From positions 67,895 through 131,894 of the forward strand of contig JBAYTR010000010.1 in NCBI GenBank assembly GCA_041675505.1: a stretch of 64,000 nt of DNA, written 5' to 3'. The DNA is from Bacteroidia bacterium (GTDB taxonomy: Bacteria > Bacteroidota > Bacteroidia > UKL13-3). The translations under genes and the position numbers were made by a program. Positions 13,547-21,205 of this stretch are shown here, piece by piece. The notes under the pieces were generated by a model. The model did not search any database. It was not told the DNA's origin and saw nothing but the letters and a program-made list of their open reading frames with translations. Within the stretch, counting starts at the first letter, position 1; every line of letters starts with the position of its first letter.

Positions 13547-13568
13547 GTGAGCAATGGTTCAGTGTGCA

Positions 13569-14180
13569 TTAAAAATTACCGTACGAGAGGAAGAACGAAC
13601 CGTTGGTAACTGTTTTCGACTGGGTACCTGTTTCGTTGTACAACTTACATGTGAAGGTGCCTTTTACATCCACATAGGTATCGCCAAAGATGCTGAACTG
13701 CTGTGTGCTGGTAATGTTAAACGTTGCCCCGCTTTGTGTACCGTTAATGCTGCTCCACACCTGTCCGGTGGCATCTACATGCAAAATTTCTACACCATCG
13801 GTAGTAGGGGTGGAATACATGTAATTTCCGGGAGCAAAATAGGCTACAAAATCAGCATCATCAGGGTAGGCACCCTGAAAGCTCATTTCACCCTTGTATA
13901 TGCTCACACCTCCTACGGTATTGTCAGAAAAAATATTGGAATAATAGTAAGCGGTAGAAAACTCAGGCAACGGGCGGGTTTCTTTACTGGAGCCGGCTGC
14001 TTGTTCAAAACCGTTTTTTCCGTCAGTGTAGGTGAGGGAACTGCCATCTACGGTAAGGGCAACATTATATCGGTTGGGAGTAGGAGTTGGGGTGGGTGTA
14101 ACGTTGTTATCATCATCGTCTTTTTTACAACCGGTAAACGCCAAAGCCAAAAGAGCTGCAGCAAAGAATAAATTTTTCAT
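13569..14180 (-). CDS. Hypothetical lipoprotein
   Basis: 203 aa with MKNLFFAAALLALAFTGC lipobox. No family recognised. Confidence 0.5.
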   Translation of the reverse strand: MKNLFFAAALLALAFTGCKKDDDDNNVTPTPTPTPNRYNVALTVDGSSLTYTDGKNGFEQAAGSSKETRPLPEFSTAYYYSNIFSDNTVGGVSIYKGEMSFQGAYPDDADFVAYFAPGNYMYSTPTTDGVEILHVDATGQVWSSINGTQSGATFNITSTQQFSIFGDTYVDVKGTFTCKLYNETGTQSKTVTNGSFFLSYGNF

Positions 14181-14459: not shown

Positions 14460-15242
14460 TTATTTCCATTTCAGAAGTGTCTTTTCAAAAAGATAAATGA
14501 TTCTCGAAAACAAAAGAGCCAAAAGAATTATGCAGATTACAGCAGCCAAAACCAACGAAACATCATAAGTTCCACCAGCTTTAAAAACCCTATGTCCCAA
14601 ACCTTCGTGGGCTGAAATAAATTCGGCAATGAAGGCACCAAGTAAAGCAAAACTAATGTTCAGTTTAAGCGAATTAAAAAGCCAAACCAATGAAGAAGGC
14701 ACGATTAGTTTTGAAAATATCTGCGTCCGTGATGCTCCAAAGGAGTGAAACAGTTTTATTTGTTGAACATCAACTTGTCTTGCACCTTCATAGGATTGAG
14801 TGATTGCAATTACTACTGTTGAAAGTGCAGCCATTATAACCTTTGCATACATACCAGTTCCAAACCACATTATCATCATAGGTGCAATGGAAAAAATTGG
14901 AATTGCTCCAATTGCAATGATGTAAGGTCTTGTCAAGTCAGCAACTCGTTTTGAATACCAAAGGGAAAGTCCGATTGCTGCACCGCAAATGTTGCCAATT
15001 AGAAAACCATAAATCGCTTCCTGTCCTGTAATAAAAATGTCCCTTGGTAAAATACCATTGGAGATGTTTTCAATCAGCGAATGAAAAACTTTGGATGGAG
15101 AAGAAAACAAAAAGAGTTTCTTTTCAGTAGTTGAAATTACAAACTGCCATAACAGCAAGAAAACTGTTAATGGCAACAAACCCAAAATGATACTTATGAT
15201 TTTTCTTTTCATTGTTCGTCTTGCTTTGGAAGTGATTGCCAC
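14460..15242 (-). CDS. ABC transporter permease, NitT/TauT (SsuC/TauC-like) family
   Basis: 260 aa, multi-TM, with an EAA-loop-like FGASRTQIFSKLIVPSSL. Overlaps the upstream ATPase gene by 34 nt. Confidence 0.8.
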   Translation of the reverse strand: MAITSKARRTMKRKIISIILGLLPLTVFLLLWQFVISTTEKKLFLFSSPSKVFHSLIENISNGILPRDIFITGQEAIYGFLIGNICGAAIGLSLWYSKRVADLTRPYIIAIGAIPIFSIAPMMIMWFGTGMYAKVIMAALSTVVIAITQSYEGARQVDVQQIKLFHSFGASRTQIFSKLIVPSSLVWLFNSLKLNISFALLGAFIAEFISAHEGLGHRVFKAGGTYDVSLVLAAVICIILLALLFSRIIYLFEKTLLKWK

Positions 15243-15970
15243 ATTTCAGTAAAGTATTTAGAAAACTTTTGGTCTTGCTTAACTGAAATTGGACTTCTCT
15301 TTTCTACATCAAAAGTTATCTGTAATTCCTTGAATGTTTCGTTTGGCTTGTGATTAAAAATTATTGTCCTATCGCTTACTGTTATTGCTTCATCAATGTC
15401 GTGAGTAATCAGTAAAACAGTTTTGTGATTCTCTTTTGACAAAGCATGTATTTGTGCTTGTAGTTCAAGCCTCGTGTTGTAATCAATTGCTGAAAATGGT
15501 TCGTCCAAAAGCATTATTTCAGAATCTAACATCAGTGTTCTGATAAGAGCAACTTTTTGTCTTTCACCGCCTGAAAGTTGTGAGGGATAACTATGAACCA
15601 AATTTGAGATGCCAAAGCGTTTCAAATACTGCATTACATTTTCTTTTGTTGAGGAATTTATTTTGCCTTGAATTTCAATACCGACAATTATGTTTTGATA
15701 AACTGTTTTCCAAGGGAGCAATAAATCCTTTTGCATCATGTATGCTATTGCAGTTCTCCTGTCTGCAATGTGGTCAAGTTTTACTTCTCCGCTATATTCA
15801 TTGTCAAGTCCGATTATCAAGTTGAAAAGAGTTGTTTTCCCACAACCATTTGGCCCCAAAATGGAAACAAACTCCCCTGAACGAATAGTGAGATTGAGGT
15901 TTTTAAAAACCTCAACGTTACCCGTTGGAGTGCTAAATGACTTGGTTATGTTTTTTAACTCAATGTTCAT
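15209..15970 (-). CDS. ABC transporter ATP-binding protein (SsuB/TauB-like)
   Basis: Walker A GPNGCGKTT, signature LSGGERQ, Walker B MLLDEPFSAID. Confidence 0.85.
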   Translation of the reverse strand: MNIELKNITKSFSTPTGNVEVFKNLNLTIRSGEFVSILGPNGCGKTTLFNLIIGLDNEYSGEVKLDHIADRRTAIAYMMQKDLLLPWKTVYQNIIVGIEIQGKINSSTKENVMQYLKRFGISNLVHSYPSQLSGGERQKVALIRTLMLDSEIMLLDEPFSAIDYNTRLELQAQIHALSKENHKTVLLITHDIDEAITVSDRTIIFNHKPNETFKELQITFDVEKRSPISVKQDQKFSKYFTEMWQSLPKQDEQ

Positions 15971-17514
15971 TAGTGCTTGACAATTTCCTTTTGTGCATTT
16001 GTAACTCTTGATTTTGCAAATGTCGCTTTAGAATAAATTTGATTAAATATTTTATAGCAATATGTTTCTTCTTTATCTCTCAAGGAAAATTGAGAATTGT
16101 TTTTTTGAATGTTTTGATATTCTTCTTCACTCAAATTGTTGTTTGCAAATTCATGTAGCAAACCCTTTCCTCTTTCAACGCCTCCAATTCCAGCCCCTTC
16201 CATCAAAGTCATTTTCTCTCTCGAATAAATGTAGTCAGGCAATAAATCTTTAAATGCTTCTCTCAAAACAAACTTTGTTGTTGTATCTCCTGTTTTTGTC
16301 TTTGCCACTTTTAAAGACGGATGAATGCTCAAAGCATATTCAACTAAAGTTCTGTCAAGAAAGGGTTCACGAACTTCAACGGCATATTTCATTCCTGTTT
16401 TGTCAACTCTCAAAAGTTGTGTCCTGTATAAATCGTTTAGAAGATTTTTAATTTCATTTTGAAATTCTGTTTCATCAGGAAGGGAAAGAAAATCACCATA
16501 GCCGCCAAATATTTCATCGCTGCCCTCGCCACACAAAACAATTTTGAAACCTTTGTCGTGTGCTAACTCTGCCAATTTCATTGAAAGTAAAGAGCCACGA
16601 ATAGGATTTGGTTCAAATGTCTCAATGGAATAAATCACATCAGGAACATTTTGAAGCAAATTTTCTTTGCTTGTTTTAATATGATGAAACTTCAAATTCA
16701 AATCATTGCAAAGTCGCTTTGCATAAATCACGTCTTCGCCTGAATCTTCACCGACAATTAAAGCTGTAACATCATTGTGATAACTGCAACACAATAAATG
16801 AACTATTGAACTGTCAATGCCACCACTTAAAAAAGTAGCAATAGGCAAATCTGTTTCAACTCTTTTCTTTACAGCCAATTCAACAAGTTCACGAACATTA
16901 TTTGTAATTGTGCTTACTGAATCAGTATTCCATTTTGTGCTTGGCGTTTTATAATACTGGAAAACTCCTTCATTGGTTATGTAGTGTGCTGGTTTAAGTT
17001 CTTCAAATGTTTCTACTTCCAAATCAGTAAAGGATTTCATTTCAGAAGAAATATAAACTACATTCTCACTCTTGCAGTAGAAGAATGGTTTCACTCCAAA
17101 AAAATCTCTTGCTCCGAAAAACTTATTTTGAACGGAATCATAAATTAGAAATGCAAACATTCCTTCTAACTGCTGCAAGAAATTTATTCCGTGTTCTTCA
17201 TAAAGATGAACCAAAACTTCTGTGTCGCAATCTGAAATAAACTTGTGTCCTTTCATTTGCAATTCTGATTTCAAATTTTTGTAGTTGTAAATCTCACCGT
17301 TAAAAACAACTCCTATTGTTTTGTTCTCATTGAAAAAAGGTTGTGTGCCATTTGGTCTGTCAACTATTTTAAGGCGAACACTTCCTAAGATTGAATTTCC
17401 TATTTGAACTTGTTTAGGTGCAGTATCTCCCCGATGCTCAATTTTTTTGAGCATAAACTCCATTTCTGTTTTGCCTTTTGGAGTAGGATTAATAATTGCT
17501 GCGATACCACACAT
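15970..17514 (-). CDS. Asparagine synthase (glutamine-hydrolysing)-family enzyme, AsnB-like
   Basis: 514 aa. MCGIAAII (class II amidotransferase Cys2) plus PP-loop FLSGGIDSS. Its stop and start overlap the ATPase gene by 1 nt. Confidence 0.8.
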   Translation of the reverse strand: MCGIAAIINPTPKGKTEMEFMLKKIEHRGDTAPKQVQIGNSILGSVRLKIVDRPNGTQPFFNENKTIGVVFNGEIYNYKNLKSELQMKGHKFISDCDTEVLVHLYEEHGINFLQQLEGMFAFLIYDSVQNKFFGARDFFGVKPFFYCKSENVVYISSEMKSFTDLEVETFEELKPAHYITNEGVFQYYKTPSTKWNTDSVSTITNNVRELVELAVKKRVETDLPIATFLSGGIDSSIVHLLCCSYHNDVTALIVGEDSGEDVIYAKRLCNDLNLKFHHIKTSKENLLQNVPDVIYSIETFEPNPIRGSLLSMKLAELAHDKGFKIVLCGEGSDEIFGGYGDFLSLPDETEFQNEIKNLLNDLYRTQLLRVDKTGMKYAVEVREPFLDRTLVEYALSIHPSLKVAKTKTGDTTTKFVLREAFKDLLPDYIYSREKMTLMEGAGIGGVERGKGLLHEFANNNLSEEEYQNIQKNNSQFSLRDKEETYCYKIFNQIYSKATFAKSRVTNAQKEIVKH

Positions 17515-17518
17515 TTTA

Positions 17519-18322
17519 TTATTTTTGTTCTTCTTTATTAAAATTTGAAAACCAAGGTCTGCTTCTTATTCCTTTACGAAAAGAGTAAATCTGTAAACTC
17601 GGAAGGTCGGGGGCAATCAATTCTTTTTCTTCATCCGATGTGTATGTGAGAAAAACATTTTGAAAAAAATTCTTTTCTACATACTGCTTTTCAATTTGAT
17701 TCATTGTAATGTAAGCATATGCCGATTCATCAGTTGAATTAAAACGCAAGTCGCCAAAAATTTGATTGTTTGAATATCTGTAAGAATGTTTACCTGCTGA
17801 TTTTTTTAAAAGTTCAAATGATTCTCTACCTTTTAAAAACTCTGGTATGTTATGACTTCCATTCTCATTTATAATTGCATTGATTAATGCATTCATGTCT
17901 TTTAAGTGATGTGATTTTGCAAAAGGCATTAGCACTTCGGACATGAGAACATGTGTGTAATTGAATTCATTTACAACGTTTCTTATCCCTTTGAAATAGC
18001 TTTTGTAATCTTCGGGCTTATAGCCATTAAGCATTGCATGTGTGTCAGTAAAAATTAATGTTAGCTGAGCATCCAATTTGTAATGCTTTTCAATAACTCG
18101 CAGAAAACCGAAAAGATTTAGCAACGCATCAAAGTCGTATTTGTCGGGGTACTTTTTATCGGATGCGCCCCAATATGAAATGAAACGAATATATTTCTTG
18201 TTATGCTTTACTCTTTCATTAACATACTTATCTAACTCCGCAATTTGTTTCTTGCGAACCTCAATCTTTTTTGCTGCTAAAAAAGAGCCGATTGTTTTTC
18301 CGTTTCGCAAATTGCTATTCAT
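17519..18322 (-). CDS. Hypothetical 267-aa protein; possible remote DIT1/PvcA (isonitrile synthase)-like fold
   Basis: The coding call rests on its tight operon position. The function is tentative. YIRFISYWGASDKKYPDKYDFDALLNLFGFLRVIEKHYKLDAQLTLIFTDTHAMLNGY parallels the remembered DIT1_PvcA pattern (PAFPxKS..PDxAE..L..L....I...Y.PGA...I.SDG.VF.DL). LQIYSF...RPWF parallels RLSIH...TPWH. Confidence 0.4.
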   Translation of the reverse strand: MNSNLRNGKTIGSFLAAKKIEVRKKQIAELDKYVNERVKHNKKYIRFISYWGASDKKYPDKYDFDALLNLFGFLRVIEKHYKLDAQLTLIFTDTHAMLNGYKPEDYKSYFKGIRNVVNEFNYTHVLMSEVLMPFAKSHHLKDMNALINAIINENGSHNIPEFLKGRESFELLKKSAGKHSYRYSNNQIFGDLRFNSTDESAYAYITMNQIEKQYVEKNFFQNVFLTYTSDEEKELIAPDLPSLQIYSFRKGIRSRPWFSNFNKEEQK

Positions 18323-20189
18323 TGCGATAAAAATATTTGCTTTCGTGTTTTAGTTTAAACAATTCCCGTGAAGACAAAAAAACAATAACTAAACAAATTA
18401 AGAAACAATAAAAAATATAATTGCCATATTTAATTGTATGTAAAACTTCTTTGTATTCTATAGGGTCGCTATTCGGAACAACTTCTTGCCTTGCAAATTC
18501 ATGTTTCAATTCATCTAATTTTGGAGTTTTAGGATGTAAAATGTGAAACATACTTGATGTAATCTCAAGTAAAATAAATAACGAGCCTATAAAGTAAAGT
18601 AACGTGGGTTTTCTTACATGCTTCCATAATGAACTTTCTATAAACAGTCGAAAGTTTTCAACTTTATTAGTGAACAGTTTTAAGAGATATAAAAAGGGCA
18701 ACAATGGTGTTAAAAATATTCGCCAACCTGCCCACTTTTTTGTGTGTAACGTTTTTCTTTCAAGTTCAAAATAATGCTTTTCATTTTGACGATATTCAGC
18801 TAACAAATCATCAGCTACGAACAAACTGTAATCAATAGTTTGAGGAACAGGTATGCCCTCAGCCCTATATCGCAAAAGCGTTAATTCTTTCAAATCATCT
18901 TTAATCGGATTAGTTTTTGAGTAATACAAATTGCCAATATCTCTCCACTCTCTTAATCTATCTACATAGTATTTAAGAATTTCTTCAAGTGAAAATTTCT
19001 CTTTTTTATTATTGATAAGAAACTGGATATAACTTTTAATAGTTTCATCTGCGATTAAGAGGTTAAGCAATTCGTCTTGGGTATCATCATCATATTTGAG
19101 TTTTGTTTTCAGAAAGTGAATTAAGCCCGTTGTATCGCTTTTCTTTAGATACGAATGAATTCTGTGTAAATTTTTATCAATGCCGTAGAGCAACCCTTTA
19201 AGTTTTTCTGAATTTTCAGGTGCATTATTACCTAAGATGCCCGTAAACATGAAACTTTGATCGTTGTCATACGCTAAGTTTTCTAATTCAATAATTTTTT
19301 TGTTTGCTTCTCCATTATGCTTATCAAGTAAGAAATCAATACTTATAAAATCACATGAGAATGAGACAGAATTATTGCAATAGTCATCGTTATCTACTTC
19401 TTCGTCAATGGTTCCATTATTTTTATATGTTTTTTTACTTACTTTACGAAGTTCATATCCAAAATCTTTTCTTTCTTCTACCAATGTAGATGTAGATGTT
19501 TTGTATTGCTCATAATAGATATGACCAATACAAAATCCTGTTGAAGGAGTATCATAACAGATGATTGATTGAGTAATATTTTCTTTTCCGTATTGAGACG
19601 GAAAATTTTGTGGATTCTTATATAATCTACCTAAGTCATTAGACGAACTAGTTAAATCTCCACTTCCTACAGCCAGAAAAGCAATTTTTGAAACTAATCC
19701 ACCAATAACCTTTGTATTGGTTTTTAATATTTTCTCTTTAAAGAGGTTTACCCCATTCTCTTTAAAGACTAAATTGTTACTATTGTCAACATCTAAACAT
19801 TGTGAAAGATTGAGATTAAACTCTTTATTACAAATATCTTTCTTTGTTTTAATGTCAAGCAAGTCCTGAAACTTTTTAAGTTCTGCTTGTAGCTTGGTGG
19901 CATCGCAATGGTTCAAATAGATAAGATGAGATGGGTCGCAAATGGCTGCGTCTGCTAAACCAAGCAAAACGGAAAAGGTTGCAAATCCATCACCCTTTAA
20001 TTTCTTGCTCTGGTCAAACCTGAAATCATTTTTTGTTCCAATTATAACTACTTCTAATTCCGAAAATGGTGTGTCATGGAAATCATTGCCATAGTATGCA
20101 ACATAAAATGGAAGGTATAATACCGTGTCAGTTGATACGGCAATTTCAAGTTTGTCTTTTGTTCGTATGGAAGAAAATCCTGAATCCAT
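18315..20189 (-). CDS. 624-aa membrane-anchored protein: N-terminal type-2 binding-protein-like domain with no signal peptide, plus three C-terminal TM helices
   Basis: N-terminal VLYLPFYVAYYGNDF and FSVLLGLADAAICDPSHL align with YLIYLPFYIAQEKGFF and ATVLKGEAQFGIGDPVF of the adjacent binding-protein gene. Hydrophobic helices fall at about aa 487-506, 529-551 and 590-607 (nt ~18369-18731). Confidence 0.5.
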   Translation of the reverse strand: MDSGFSSIRTKDKLEIAVSTDTVLYLPFYVAYYGNDFHDTPFSELEVVIIGTKNDFRFDQSKKLKGDGFATFSVLLGLADAAICDPSHLIYLNHCDATKLQAELKKFQDLLDIKTKKDICNKEFNLNLSQCLDVDNSNNLVFKENGVNLFKEKILKTNTKVIGGLVSKIAFLAVGSGDLTSSSNDLGRLYKNPQNFPSQYGKENITQSIICYDTPSTGFCIGHIYYEQYKTSTSTLVEERKDFGYELRKVSKKTYKNNGTIDEEVDNDDYCNNSVSFSCDFISIDFLLDKHNGEANKKIIELENLAYDNDQSFMFTGILGNNAPENSEKLKGLLYGIDKNLHRIHSYLKKSDTTGLIHFLKTKLKYDDDTQDELLNLLIADETIKSYIQFLINNKKEKFSLEEILKYYVDRLREWRDIGNLYYSKTNPIKDDLKELTLLRYRAEGIPVPQTIDYSLFVADDLLAEYRQNEKHYFELERKTLHTKKWAGWRIFLTPLLPFLYLLKLFTNKVENFRLFIESSLWKHVRKPTLLYFIGSLFILLEITSSMFHILHPKTPKLDELKHEFARQEVVPNSDPIEYKEVLHTIKYGNYIFYCFLICLVIVFLSSRELFKLKHESKYFYRNE

Positions 20190-20191
20190 AT

Positions 20192-21205
20192 TTAATTTGT
20201 CTTGGTATCTGAAATAGATTTTTCGGCAAAGGAATTATCTACTGCATCTGATGTTGGTTTCATTTCCTTCATGTCGCCTATATCAACTCTTACTTGTATC
20301 GCTTTCTGCCAAGCTTCATCACTCATTACAGCATGGTCTGGAATTGTTTTATCTGCTACCATTCTTTTTACAGCATTTGCAACAACTGCTTTGTCAAGGT
20401 TGGGGAAAAGTTTTGCTGCAATTTCTGCCGTTCCTGCTTCATCTGTGTGGCAATACTGTAATGCCTTTTCAATTGCGTTTACAAATTTTTGAACAGTTTC
20501 CTTATTGGCGTTTATGTATTCCTCTGTCGTTGTTAAGCCAGTGAAAGCAAATCTTCCATAAAACTGCGGTGAGGAGTAAACAACTTTGTAACCTTTACTT
20601 TCAGCTATTGATGTTCCTGGTTCTAAGTCCATCGCAATATCGGCACTTCCATTTTCAAGTAAAGCCAACTGTGAACCAATTGGGGCTTGAACAATGATTG
20701 TGTTTTTTAATAAATCTCCTCCTTTCATGAGTGTCTTTTTCATCAAAGCGTAATTTGTTGACGGGTCGGGGAATGTTCCAACTTTCAAACCAGCCAAATC
20801 ACCAGGCTGTTCTATGGTTTTGATGTTATCCTTGTTTGTTACACCCCAAATTGTTACTCCGTCAACGATGGAACCAATTACTTTTCCTTTTGCTCCTTTC
20901 TCTCGTGATATGGCAGTGAATACAGGGTCGCCAATTCCAAATTGTGCTTCGCCTTTCAAAACGGTTGCAAAAACCTGGTCGTCATTACCTGAAAACTTTA
21001 CAGTAATTTCAAGTCCTTCGTCTTTGAAAAAACCCTTCTCCTGTGCAATGTAGAAAGGTAGGTAAATTAGATACTTCTCTTGTCCCCACTGCGCTACTAT
21101 TACTTTGGTGACTTCGGTGGTTTTTGGCTTTTCAGTGTTGCATGAATTGCATCCTCCCAAAATGATTGTGAGAACCAGTAATGCTGCTAAAACTATTTTA
21201 TTCAT
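20192..21205 (-). CDS. ABC substrate-binding lipoprotein, NMT1/THI5/SsuA-like
   Basis: 337 aa with MNKIVLAALLVLTIILGGC lipobox and LPFYIAQEKGFFKDEGLEITV, typical of NMT1/SsuA-type binding proteins. Confidence 0.75.
   Translation of the reverse strand: MNKIVLAALLVLTIILGGCNSCNTEKPKTTEVTKVIVAQWGQEKYLIYLPFYIAQEKGFFKDEGLEITVKFSGNDDQVFATVLKGEAQFGIGDPVFTAISREKGAKGKVIGSIVDGVTIWGVTNKDNIKTIEQPGDLAGLKVGTFPDPSTNYALMKKTLMKGGDLLKNTIIVQAPIGSQLALLENGSADIAMDLEPGTSIAESKGYKVVYSSPQFYGRFAFTGLTTTEEYINANKETVQKFVNAIEKALQYCHTDEAGTAEIAAKLFPNLDKAVVANAVKRMVADKTIPDHAVMSDEAWQKAIQVRVDIGDMKEMKPTSDAVDNSFAEKSISDTKTN

Follow-up and report, generated by a model that had tools for sequence, protein, structure and literature searches.

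Isonitriles are made enzymatically by just two known routes; one of these, the IsnA/PvcA route, has been regarded as the work of a narrow family that uses Tyr or Trp together with ribulose-5-phosphate (PMC12946266). In the isocyanide synthase reaction, the amine of the amino acid and ribulose-5-phosphate are converted into the isonitrile (PMC12946266, PMC7345447). The same scaffold offers a precedent for a non-isonitrile product, as Dit1 forms N-formyl-tyrosine (PMC7345447). Yeast Dit1 acts on tyrosine and is a true member of Pfam family PF05141 (DIT1_PvcA), unlike the family described here.

The 267-aa protein studied here (the target) is encoded in a 64,000-nucleotide stretch of a Bacteroidia bacterium contig (JBAYTR010000010.1; the window), and an earlier note on this DNA had suggested for it a weak relationship to DIT1/PvcA enzymes. 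Profile searches, hhalign comparisons and structure matches all bear this suggestion out. The target ORF is a genuine gene; it is kept in 24 close homologues with 31-100% identity, and no homologue was found in the plasmid collection. Segment prediction gives no hydrophobic or transmembrane segment, consistent with a cytoplasmic protein. Two stretches had been singled out previously, a 66-residue string corresponding to residues 44-109 and LQIYSFRKGIRSRPWF, corresponding to residues 243-258; the features discussed below are listed in Table 1.

Table 1. Positions in the window of the cassette genes and of the conserved motifs of the target
Feature	Position	Strand	Basis
ABC transporter permease (BPD_transp_1, SsuC/TauC-like)	14460..15242	-	Pfam/NCBIfam, cassette loci
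ABC transporter ATPase	15209..15970	-	ABC_tran E 9e-33; kept in cassette loci
514-aa glutamine-dependent AsnB-type amidotransferase	15970..17514	-	Pfam GATase_7 + Asn_synthase
267-aa isocyanide-synthase-like protein (target)	17519..18322	-	ORF
RPWF, residues 255-258	17549..17560	-	hhalign, conservation
Strand 4, VFLTYTS, residues 223-229	17636..17656	-	model, hhalign, conservation
YITMNQIE, Y204 to E211, long helix before strand 4	17690..17713	-	model, conservation
Y109	17996..17998	-	alignment with conserved Tyr of isocyanide synthase D.....Y motif
FTDTHAMLNGY, residues 91-101, after strand 2	18020..18052	-	HMMER to 9dhm_A, hhalign, conservation
YWGASDK, residues 50-56, loop after strand 1	18155..18175	-	conservation, alignment
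624-aa protein, C-terminal TM helices 529-551, 585-613	18315..20189	-	ORF, TM prediction
337-aa lipoprotein substrate-binding protein, NMT1/SsuA type (NitT/TauT-type ABC importer)	20192..21205	-	NMT1

Relation to the isocyanide synthases

Taken as a single sequence, the target matches PF05141 with 17.9 bits (E=0.0024), over residues 57-138 only and below the gathering threshold of 26.4 bits. The match is likewise weak in 14 of the 24 close homologues (best E=3.7e-5), none of which carries a precomputed PF05141 assignment. An NCBIfam scan of the target, including NF045653 (L-tyrosine isonitrile synthase PvcA), gave no match, and one distant family member reached 21 bits with NF045653, whose cutoff is 600. 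By those databases' own thresholds, the target lies outside the PF05141 and NCBIfam families. PDB sequence searches with the target alone or with the 24-member close family returned noise only, and hhalign with the close family alone reached no better than P 0.006 against the isocyanide synthases; in the PDB sequence searches, the homology signal emerged only after the family had been widened.

With a 79-sequence family profile, PIsnA (9dhm_A) becomes the top PDB match (E=7.7e-5), HMMER aligning FTDTHA..LNGY...Y of the target with CSDGHVFGDL...Y of 9dhm_A, while TyrRS matches of the same profile stay at E 0.4-0.5. When 164 family domains were compared with 14 isocyanide synthases by hhalign, the global alignment gave Prob 98.1% (P=5e-13, 251 columns) and the local alignment Prob 96.6% (P=6e-10), against P=0.17-0.82 for controls with a reversed template or shuffled columns. 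The full-length isocyanide synthases used for comparison were drawn from plasmid records; the final homologue search for them gave near-identical Streptomyces sequences only. Common ancestry of the target family and the isocyanide synthases is therefore detectable by profile-profile comparison, at about 14-16% identity between the target and these enzymes.

The AF2 model of the target (pLDDT 91, pTM 0.89) points the same way. PvcA and PIsnA are its top structural matches, full-length and well above every other HUP-fold protein, and the model adopts the PvcA/IsnA fold over the whole domain. Neither of the outcomes that the earlier note had set against its own suggestion, a profile probability below about 50% and an unrelated fold, was observed. 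The resemblance exceeds chance, and the target is indeed distantly related in structure to the isonitrile-forming enzymes. It is also shorter, as had been noted: 267 aa against about 310 aa for the isocyanide synthases (3E59, 9DH4, 9DHM; NF045653), a difference of about 45 aa. Their C-terminal GRPSHF segment has no counterpart in the target.

Conserved residues of the family

The DIT1_PvcA motif order that the earlier note gave is the one found in the retrieved real isocyanide synthases, which read ...VVFTLPGFPCKSPNPAKVLGHLPDQGERLSLRFL...IYPPGARIVICSDGHVFGDL...HIDAY...VRLSIHPQ...KFGIRLL...WTTPWH. We compared this order with conservation across 164 domains of the target family, taken from clusters at no more than 50% identity. 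After strand 1, YWGASDK lies opposite the PxFPxKSPN loop of the isocyanide synthases, the residues of which are not kept. PxFPxKSPNxxK becomes Y-W-G-x-x-x-[KR], with W51 and G52 near-invariant and K/R56 present in 159 domains, and K69, N72 and K75 of the isocyanide synthases have no conserved counterpart. The proposed replacement of PAFP by SYWG holds insofar as the two loops face each other, but this placement is approximate because the alignment is gapped there.

The change from SDG to TDT is confirmed by both the family profile and hhalign, which set FTDTHAMLNGY against CSDGHVFGDL. The Asp of this strand-2 loop is kept (D93, in 153 of the 164 domains) and the Gly becomes Thr. The following residue is an invariant His in the target family and H, R, Q or Y in the isocyanide synthases; the Asp of their FxDL is lost, with an invariant Asn (N99) close by. 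H95 and N99 are found in all 164 domains, and Y109 in 163. Further on, Y204 is found in all 164 domains and position 211 (E211 in the target) is Glu or Asp in 163 of them; both are invariants specific to the family, without a conserved counterpart in the isocyanide synthases.

Towards the C-terminus, the parallel drawn previously with RLSIH...TPWH stands in its second half, where RPWF lies opposite TPWH, whereas RLSIHP had been mapped one strand off. According to HHalign and the predicted strands, VFLTYTS and not LQIYSF is opposite RLSIHP; LQIY is the next strand, opposite KFGIRL. Relative to VRLSIHP, the Arg is replaced by F224 and the His by T228 (Thr/Asn), while Ser/Thr at position 226 is kept (S/T in 152 of 164 domains). 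In RPWF, P256 and W257 are common to both groups, the His gives way to Phe258, and the residue before the Pro is K/R255 in 127 of 164 domains.

The core common to the target and the isocyanide synthases thus comprises D63 (acidic), the xDxH loop, Y109, the strand-4 Ser/Thr and the Pro-Trp pair, whereas RFLxED, RLSIHP, PxFPxKSPN and the His of TPWH are replaced or absent. The near-invariant set of the target family consists of W51, G52, K/R56, H95, N99, K/R178, Y204, E211 and K/R255. In the AF2 model, these residues are placed at the C-terminal strand ends, the region in which the isocyanide-synthase fold binds substrates. The motif residues are conserved within the family, as the earlier note had proposed to check, but the invariants are the family's own, and the identity of H95, N99 and Y204 in every one of the 164 domains argues for catalysis rather than binding alone. 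Since most of the polar residues invariant in isocyanide synthases are lost, the suggestion of a divergent member with possibly different chemistry is strengthened. We infer from conservation only which isocyanide synthase residues are catalytic and which are substrate-specific. The location of K/R56 and K/R255 near the loops that carry the Lys and His motifs in isocyanide synthases makes a phosphorylated or carboxylated co-substrate, or else isocyanide-synthase-like chemistry, possible.

The cassette, the family and its fusion partners

The target belongs to a cassette of six genes that encode a lipoprotein binding protein, a membrane-anchored 624-aa protein, the target, an AsnB-type amidotransferase, an ABC ATPase and a permease. 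The cassette is present in nine other loci, where the identity of the target falls as low as 32%. Across cassettes, identities range over 32-84% for the target, 51-79% for AsnB and 65-85% for the transporter. The stop codon of the 624-aa gene overlaps the target start by 8 nt and the AsnB-type gene begins 4 nt past the target stop codon; both junctions indicate co-translation. The retrieved isocyanide synthases adjoin TauD/TfdA or P450 genes, and the target cassette has neither; no Fe/2-oxoglutarate oxygenase of the IsnB/PvcB type and no other isonitrile-tailoring gene was found in it.

The pairing with AsnB, which the earlier note did not recognise, is the most informative feature of the target. 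The AsnB-type gene adjoins the target gene in every cassette locus, nine of them besides this one, and gene fusions of the two occur elsewhere. Its product scores 354 bits with TIGR01536 (cutoff 267) but falls below the AsnB equivalog cutoff (406 vs 499 bits), and among PDB entries it is closest to E. coli AsnB (1ct9, E 3e-61). The two-domain architecture, the N-terminal catalytic Cys, SGGIDS (PP-loop), GEGSDE and the Arg325 equivalent of the E. coli enzyme are all kept, whereas T322-T323 is changed to N-P. From AsnB and its natural-product relatives, the cassette enzyme differs in being encoded, together with an ABC importer, on a low-GC cassette gained by horizontal transfer and in being fused elsewhere to an isocyanide-synthase-like domain. 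AsnB makes its own nucleophile, ammonia, which leaves the need for the target as a partner unexplained.

The import side of the cassette is represented by a 337-aa binding protein (Pfam NMT1, E 2.8e-30) that carries a signal peptide with a Cys lipobox and is 65-85% identical among cassettes. The 624-aa protein, also present in the nine other loci, has no signal peptide and no Pfam or NCBIfam family. Its residues 22-89 align by hhalign with the cassette binding protein (P 1.9e-4) and its residues 295-346 with fused NMT1 domains (P 4.5e-4), weakly suggesting that the N-terminal ~350 aa may form a very divergent NMT1/binding-protein fold. In the GC profile, the cassette and the low-GC island both end with the permease gene, and no tRNA or meaningful repeats were found at the island boundaries. 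PADLOC gave no match on the cassette, and a defence-system role was dropped for this reason. A likeness to the 'Sao' transporter was far below cutoff and was likewise set aside, the name belonging to a selenoprotein-associated system.

Beyond the cassette, an exhaustive search recovered at least 424 cluster representatives at E<=1e-3, 236 of them at E<=1e-10, each representing a cluster at 50% identity. They come from Bacteroidota, Zixibacteria, Verrucomicrobia, Patescibacteria and many Alphaproteobacteria, including Methylobacterium and Bradyrhizobium. Among the 149 best representatives, 102 are stand-alone proteins, the genomic contexts of which were looked at for part of them. The remainder includes 24 fusions with ANL-adenylase domains, 12 with AsnB (10 AsnB-domain and 2 AsnB-NMT1-domain), 7 with NMT1 domains and 2 of the domain with PxpB, the ANL and PxpB fusions belonging to more distant members. 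The fused NMT1 domains lack a signal peptide and show strong homology to the cassette binding protein (P 1e-35); alphaproteobacterial members also occur with PxpB/PxpC and EamA exporter genes. Hence the target is tied to an AsnB-type amidotransferase and an NMT1/THI5-type ligand-binding domain by gene order in ten loci and by fusions elsewhere. A literature search for an isocyanide-synthase-like sister family found no report. Set apart from the isocyanide synthases by sub-threshold models and differing invariants, the target family is, as judged from its sequences, a large and nameless sister family with its own putative set of active-site residues. Proteins that are now 'hypothetical' everywhere thereby gain a name and a context.

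Candidate functions

We interpret the target as a cytoplasmic enzyme with the isocyanide-synthase fold (class-I aminoacyl-tRNA-synthetase-like Rossmann), from a family that is sister to the isocyanide synthases proper; this is the reading we favour, with reasonable though far from full confidence. The different active-site set, together with repeated linkage or fusion to ATP-dependent carboxyl-activating enzymes, makes it likely that the family performs chemistry so far undescribed.

Simple resemblance by chance, or a generic Rossmann-fold likeness to enzymes to which the target is unrelated, might be read from the sub-threshold single-sequence Pfam match, the modest hhalign P of the close family and the empty PDB searches with one sequence or the close family; it is effectively refuted, and extremely improbable, given the significant wide-family profile and hhalign results with clean negative controls, full-length PvcA/PIsnA matches well above other HUP-fold proteins, and collinear shared motifs. 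The shared fold also brings to mind a ligation of an amino acid to some acceptor, in the manner of TyrRS/TrpRS, cyclodipeptide synthases, MshC/BshC or PanC, proceeding via ATP, an aminoacyl-adenylate or aminoacyl-tRNA. We hold this to be very unlikely: the target has neither the HIGH and KMSKS motifs of TyrRS/TrpRS catalytic domains nor the Ser with a Y..E pair of cyclodipeptide synthases (the catalytic Ser position is unconserved, S54 being Gly in 88 of 164 domains), the profiles find isocyanide synthases alone above noise, and PvcA scores far above these relatives in structure.

A genuine isonitrile synthase, or a Dit1-like N-formyl synthase, that condenses an amine with a keto-sugar phosphate but has strongly diverged substrate-binding residues and a different amine as substrate, would account for the isocyanide synthases being the best structural and profile matches, for the xDxH loop, Tyr, acidic residue and Pro-Trp in common, and for basic residues at 56 and 255 near loops bearing Lys/His in those enzymes; Dit1 moreover shows that the superfamily already has more than one product (PMC7345447). 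We nevertheless consider it quite unlikely, as the invariant K69, N72, K75, R199, E203/D204, R220, R246, H250 and H275 are replaced or unaligned, the GRPSHF segment is missing, the target stays below the Pfam and NCBIfam thresholds, the cassette has no Fe/2-oxoglutarate oxygenase or P450, and its partners are enzymes that activate carboxyl groups with ATP, an activity without a role in isocyanide synthase chemistry. Alternatively, the protein could be a subunit without catalysis of its own, a domain for ligand binding, regulation or scaffolding that delivers a substrate to AsnB, ANL or PxpBC enzymes or controls them. It always accompanies, or is fused to, an enzyme that is catalytically self-sufficient in other contexts, AsnB requires no outside nucleophile, and the target evolves faster than AsnB or the transporter, so we give this some weight and still regard it as unlikely: H95, N99 and Y204 are invariant in 164 very divergent domains, W51, G52, D93, Y109, E211, P256 and W257 are nearly so, the conserved residues all lie at strand ends, the active site of the fold, and about two-thirds of the best representatives stand alone.

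For the favoured reading, a catalytic member of a sister family, we envision, with low certainty, that the target would bind an amino-acid-like or amine-bearing small molecule and catalyse either C-N bond formation or a condensation, in a step that is coupled to its partner's ATP-dependent carboxyl activation. The substrate might be imported by the co-encoded binding-protein-dependent ABC importer, possibly passed to the membrane-anchored 624-aa protein, and then processed by the target and AsnB, which would amidate it with Gln and ATP; the target product would probably be no isonitrile. A more specific version can be offered only tentatively, and we are rather doubtful of it: an undescribed family that is the obligate partner of AsnB, ANL adenylases or PxpBC and installs a nitrogen-containing group by chemistry new to the fold, serving here an import-coupled pathway on a mobile cassette. 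The group might, for example, be an amide, an amidine, a nitrile or some different C-N linkage, with an amino-acid-like molecule as the substrate.

A sister family that keeps the scaffold with different invariants points to unexplored chemistry on a fold noted for unusual C-N bond formation, and its recurrent fusions with AsnB, ANL adenylases, NMT1/THI5-like domains and PxpB name concrete, testable partner enzymes. The presence of members within NRPS clusters hints at tailoring steps in natural-product biosynthesis that are yet to be discovered: one ANL fusion lies inside an NRPS cluster, and another adjoins a carbamoyltransferase gene.

Kinship with the isocyanide synthases

The 267-aa protein is a real, conserved gene product, since an identical protein, labelled 'hypothetical protein', occurs in a Bacteroidia metagenome-assembled genome and 23 further homologues exist (31-87% identity), none of them named and none with a Pfam assignment. 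The earlier note had seen in it a weak DIT1/PvcA-like motif order, and both strings that it quoted were located, at residues 44-109 and 243-258. The corresponding Pfam profile, PF05141, does match the protein alone at residues 57-138 (E 0.0024), at 17.9 bits and so below the 26.4 cutoff; this weak match recurs independently in 14 of the 24 homologues (best E 3.7e-5), among which no other family recurs to a comparable extent. The protein has no match in NCBIfam, and PDB sequence searches with it and with its close family found none.

Those 24 proteins are a small part of a much larger family, for which an exhaustive HMMER profile search returned 424 cluster representatives at E<=1e-3 and 236 at E<=1e-10. 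With a profile built from 79 diverse members, the search placed the isocyanide synthase PIsnA (9dhm_A, 9dh4_A) at the top of the PDB (E 7.7e-5), aligning FTDTHA..LNGY......Y opposite CSDGHVFGDL......Y. When an alignment of 164 family domains was compared by hhalign with full-length isocyanide synthases, taken from plasmid records and found by homology searching, the probability was 98.1% in global mode (P 5e-13, 251 columns) and 96.6% in local mode (P 6e-10), against P 0.17-0.82 for one reversed template and three column-shuffled queries. The close family alone reaches just P 0.006, which is why the signal had looked weak at first reading. An AlphaFold2 model built from the 24-sequence alignment (pLDDT 91, pTM 0.89) has PIsnA or PvcA chains as its best eight Foldseek matches in the PDB (E 1.5e-6 to 2.5e-5, TM 0.59-0.63, ~275 columns), rather than an unrelated fold, with tyrosyl-tRNA synthetases ranking next. 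Because the profile, hhalign and structural results agree, the relation is specific to isocyanide synthases and not a generic Rossmann-fold likeness: the protein has their fold and shares their ancestry, a relationship that the earlier note had tentatively suggested. One detail of that suggestion is corrected, in that the segment facing RLSIHP is VFLTYTS and not LQIYSF.

IsnA, PvcA and PIsnA are the closest known proteins and share the scaffold, but the protein falls outside their family thresholds, lacks three of the four signature motifs for which it was checked, and has other genomic partners. Columns invariant in isocyanide synthases were mapped through the HH alignment and residues counted in the 164 domains. 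Retained are the acid of PD.AER (D/E63, 164/164), the Asp of SDG (D93, 153/164), the Tyr ~15 residues after it (Y109, 163/164), the Ser of RLSIHP (S/T226, 152/164) and the Pro-Trp of TPWH (P256, 162/164; W257, 163/164). In contrast, K69, N72 and K75 of PxFPxKSPN..K face a [YF]-W-G-x3-[KR] loop; R199, E203 and D204 (RFLxED), R220 and W233 are without conserved equivalent; R246 and H250 of RLSIHP become F224 and T/N228; H275 of TPWH is F258 in the protein; and the C-terminal GRPSHF segment is missing from the protein and its family. The family instead has invariants of its own, W51, G52, H95, N99, Y204, E211, P238 and P241 (H95, N99 and Y204 each in 164 of 164 domains), together with conserved basic positions at R23, K/R56, K/R178 and K/R255. 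Judged from the secondary structure of the model, its conserved residues would lie at the C-terminal ends of strands 1-5 and in the helix before strand 4, the region in which the fold binds substrates. The protein belongs to a separate family that has no name and differs in its set of invariant residues; within the isocyanide synthase superfamily we rate it a functionally distinct branch. Neither this family nor its pairing with AsnB is described in Pfam (2025 copy), NCBIfam (June 2026), the PDB or the searchable literature.

Partner enzymes in cassettes and fusions

The gene is located in a segment of low GC content, from ~14.4 to 24 kb of the window (31-38% GC vs 42-49% around), in which all genes are closely spaced on the minus strand. 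Its start overlaps the upstream 624-aa ORF by 8 nt, and 4 nt separate its stop from the start of the AsnB gene.

Features of the window and of comparison loci
Feature	Location	Strand	Remarks
Two genes, 367 aa and 508 aa	21262-23891	-	mutual 1-nt overlap
NMT1/SsuA-type binding protein	20192-21205	-	lipoprotein
624-aa protein	18315-20189	-	no signal peptide; C-terminal TM helices
267-aa protein	17519-18322	-	267 residues
Glutamine-dependent AsnB-type amidotransferase	15970-17514	-	catalytic Cys, PP-loop, GEGSDE retained
ABC ATPase and permease		-	last two cassette genes
Two ~200-aa ORFs	13554-14180	opposite	almost fully overlapping
Transposase genes	L001:4952-6505; L001:14426-15645		either side of a Bacteroidota cassette
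Seventh cassette gene	L003:5244-6020; L016:7544-8428		also in L004, L005
AsnB-NMT1-domain fusion P0107	L089:4676-7768; L090:2677-5769		1030 aa

The six cassette genes, from the binding protein to the permease, recur in identical order at nine other loci (Bacteroidia, Cellulophaga, Zixibacteria and unbinned contigs), with the 267-aa protein down to 32% identity; the flanking genes vary, and transposases stand on both sides at one locus. The closest PDB relative of the cassette AsnB is E. coli AsnB (1ct9, E 3e-61). Identity across cassettes is highest for the binding protein and transporter (65-85%) and lowest for the 267-aa protein (32-84%) and the 624-aa protein (27-55%). The last has no Pfam or NCBIfam assignment; in two collinear segments it weakly resembles the NMT1 binding-protein fold (hhalign, P 1.9e-4 and P 4.5e-4), to which it may be related. 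The cassette matches none of the PADLOC defence models.

Among the best 149 family representatives, 102 stand alone, 24 are ANL adenylase-domain, 10 AsnB-domain, 7 NMT1-domain, 2 AsnB-NMT1-domain and 2 domain-PxpB fusions, and 2 carry an extension without assignment. A complete AsnB-domain fusion (751 aa) occurs in Patescibacteria. Signal peptides are absent from the fused NMT1 domains, whose homology to the cassette binding protein is strong (P 1e-35). One ANL fusion sits in an NRPS cluster that also encodes a CmlA-type hydroxylase and a free carrier protein, and another adjoins a carbamoyltransferase. In Alphaproteobacteria (Methylobacterium, Bradyrhizobium, Methylocella, Blastochloris and many MAGs), carboxyltransferase-domain proteins of the PxpB/PxpC type and an EamA exporter come after the domain. 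The protein is functionally linked to AsnB and to domains of the NMT1 type; its link to ANL and PxpB enzymes is more distant.

Candidate chemistry

These partners have in common that they use ATP to activate a carboxyl or amide carbonyl. Several polar residues are absolutely invariant, which suggests that the 267-aa protein is an enzyme and does more than bind passively. Judging from isocyanide synthases and aaRS-like relatives, its substrate would probably be an amine or resemble an amino acid, and its reaction is probably coupled to the activated intermediate that the partner forms; in the window cassette, the ABC system may import the substrate. That it makes an isonitrile by canonical chemistry is unlikely, because most polar residues invariant in isocyanide synthases and their usual oxygenase partners are missing, although basic residues remain near loops matching theirs. 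With its clear partner enzymes, the protein is a concrete lead for enzyme discovery.

Further observations on the loci

The 65-85% identity of the binding protein across the window cassette, L001-L006 and L014-L016, well above that of the 267-aa or 624-aa protein, suggests that its ligand site is strongly constrained while the cytoplasmic components drift. At L001 a DDE transposase and an IS3-type HTH/rve pair bracket the cassette, which fits the low-GC, horizontally moved look of the window cassette. Some cassettes carry a seventh gene (~260-290 aa, membrane-anchored, weak DUF5919 match), whose position varies: in one lineage it separates the 267-aa homologue from AsnB, in another the binding-protein gene from the 624-aa gene. 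Both versions are homologous, with 27% identity (E 2e-18).

In the window, the two genes upstream of the cassette, inside the same low-GC island, look like a separate two-gene module because they are missing from every other cassette locus. The 367-aa product has a weak, sub-cutoff NA37 nucleoid-associated-protein match (E 1.7e-4); the 508-aa product has several TM segments at its C-terminus and matches a SLATT-like PADLOC model faintly (E 0.005). At 13554-14180 the real gene is probably the minus-strand ORF, a lipoprotein with a sub-cutoff Riean_0653-family match (E 2.5e-8).

Across L017, L048, L065, L078 and ~50 further alphaproteobacterial loci, the domain, often fused to PxpB, is accompanied by PxpC and an EamA transporter, and a conserved 880-aa dCache-PAS-GGDEF-EAL protein adjoins this form in 55 loci. 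The recurrent neighbours included no PxpA (LamB/YcsF) gene, so PxpB/C here is probably not a 5-oxoprolinase. For the fusion P0107, the standard bacterial code does not yield the database protein, Trp stands at AsnB's conserved Gly (MCWIA for MCGIA) and an adjacent ORF has in-frame stops; the locus is consistent with a UGA-recoding lineage, e.g. Gracilibacteria or Absconditabacteria.
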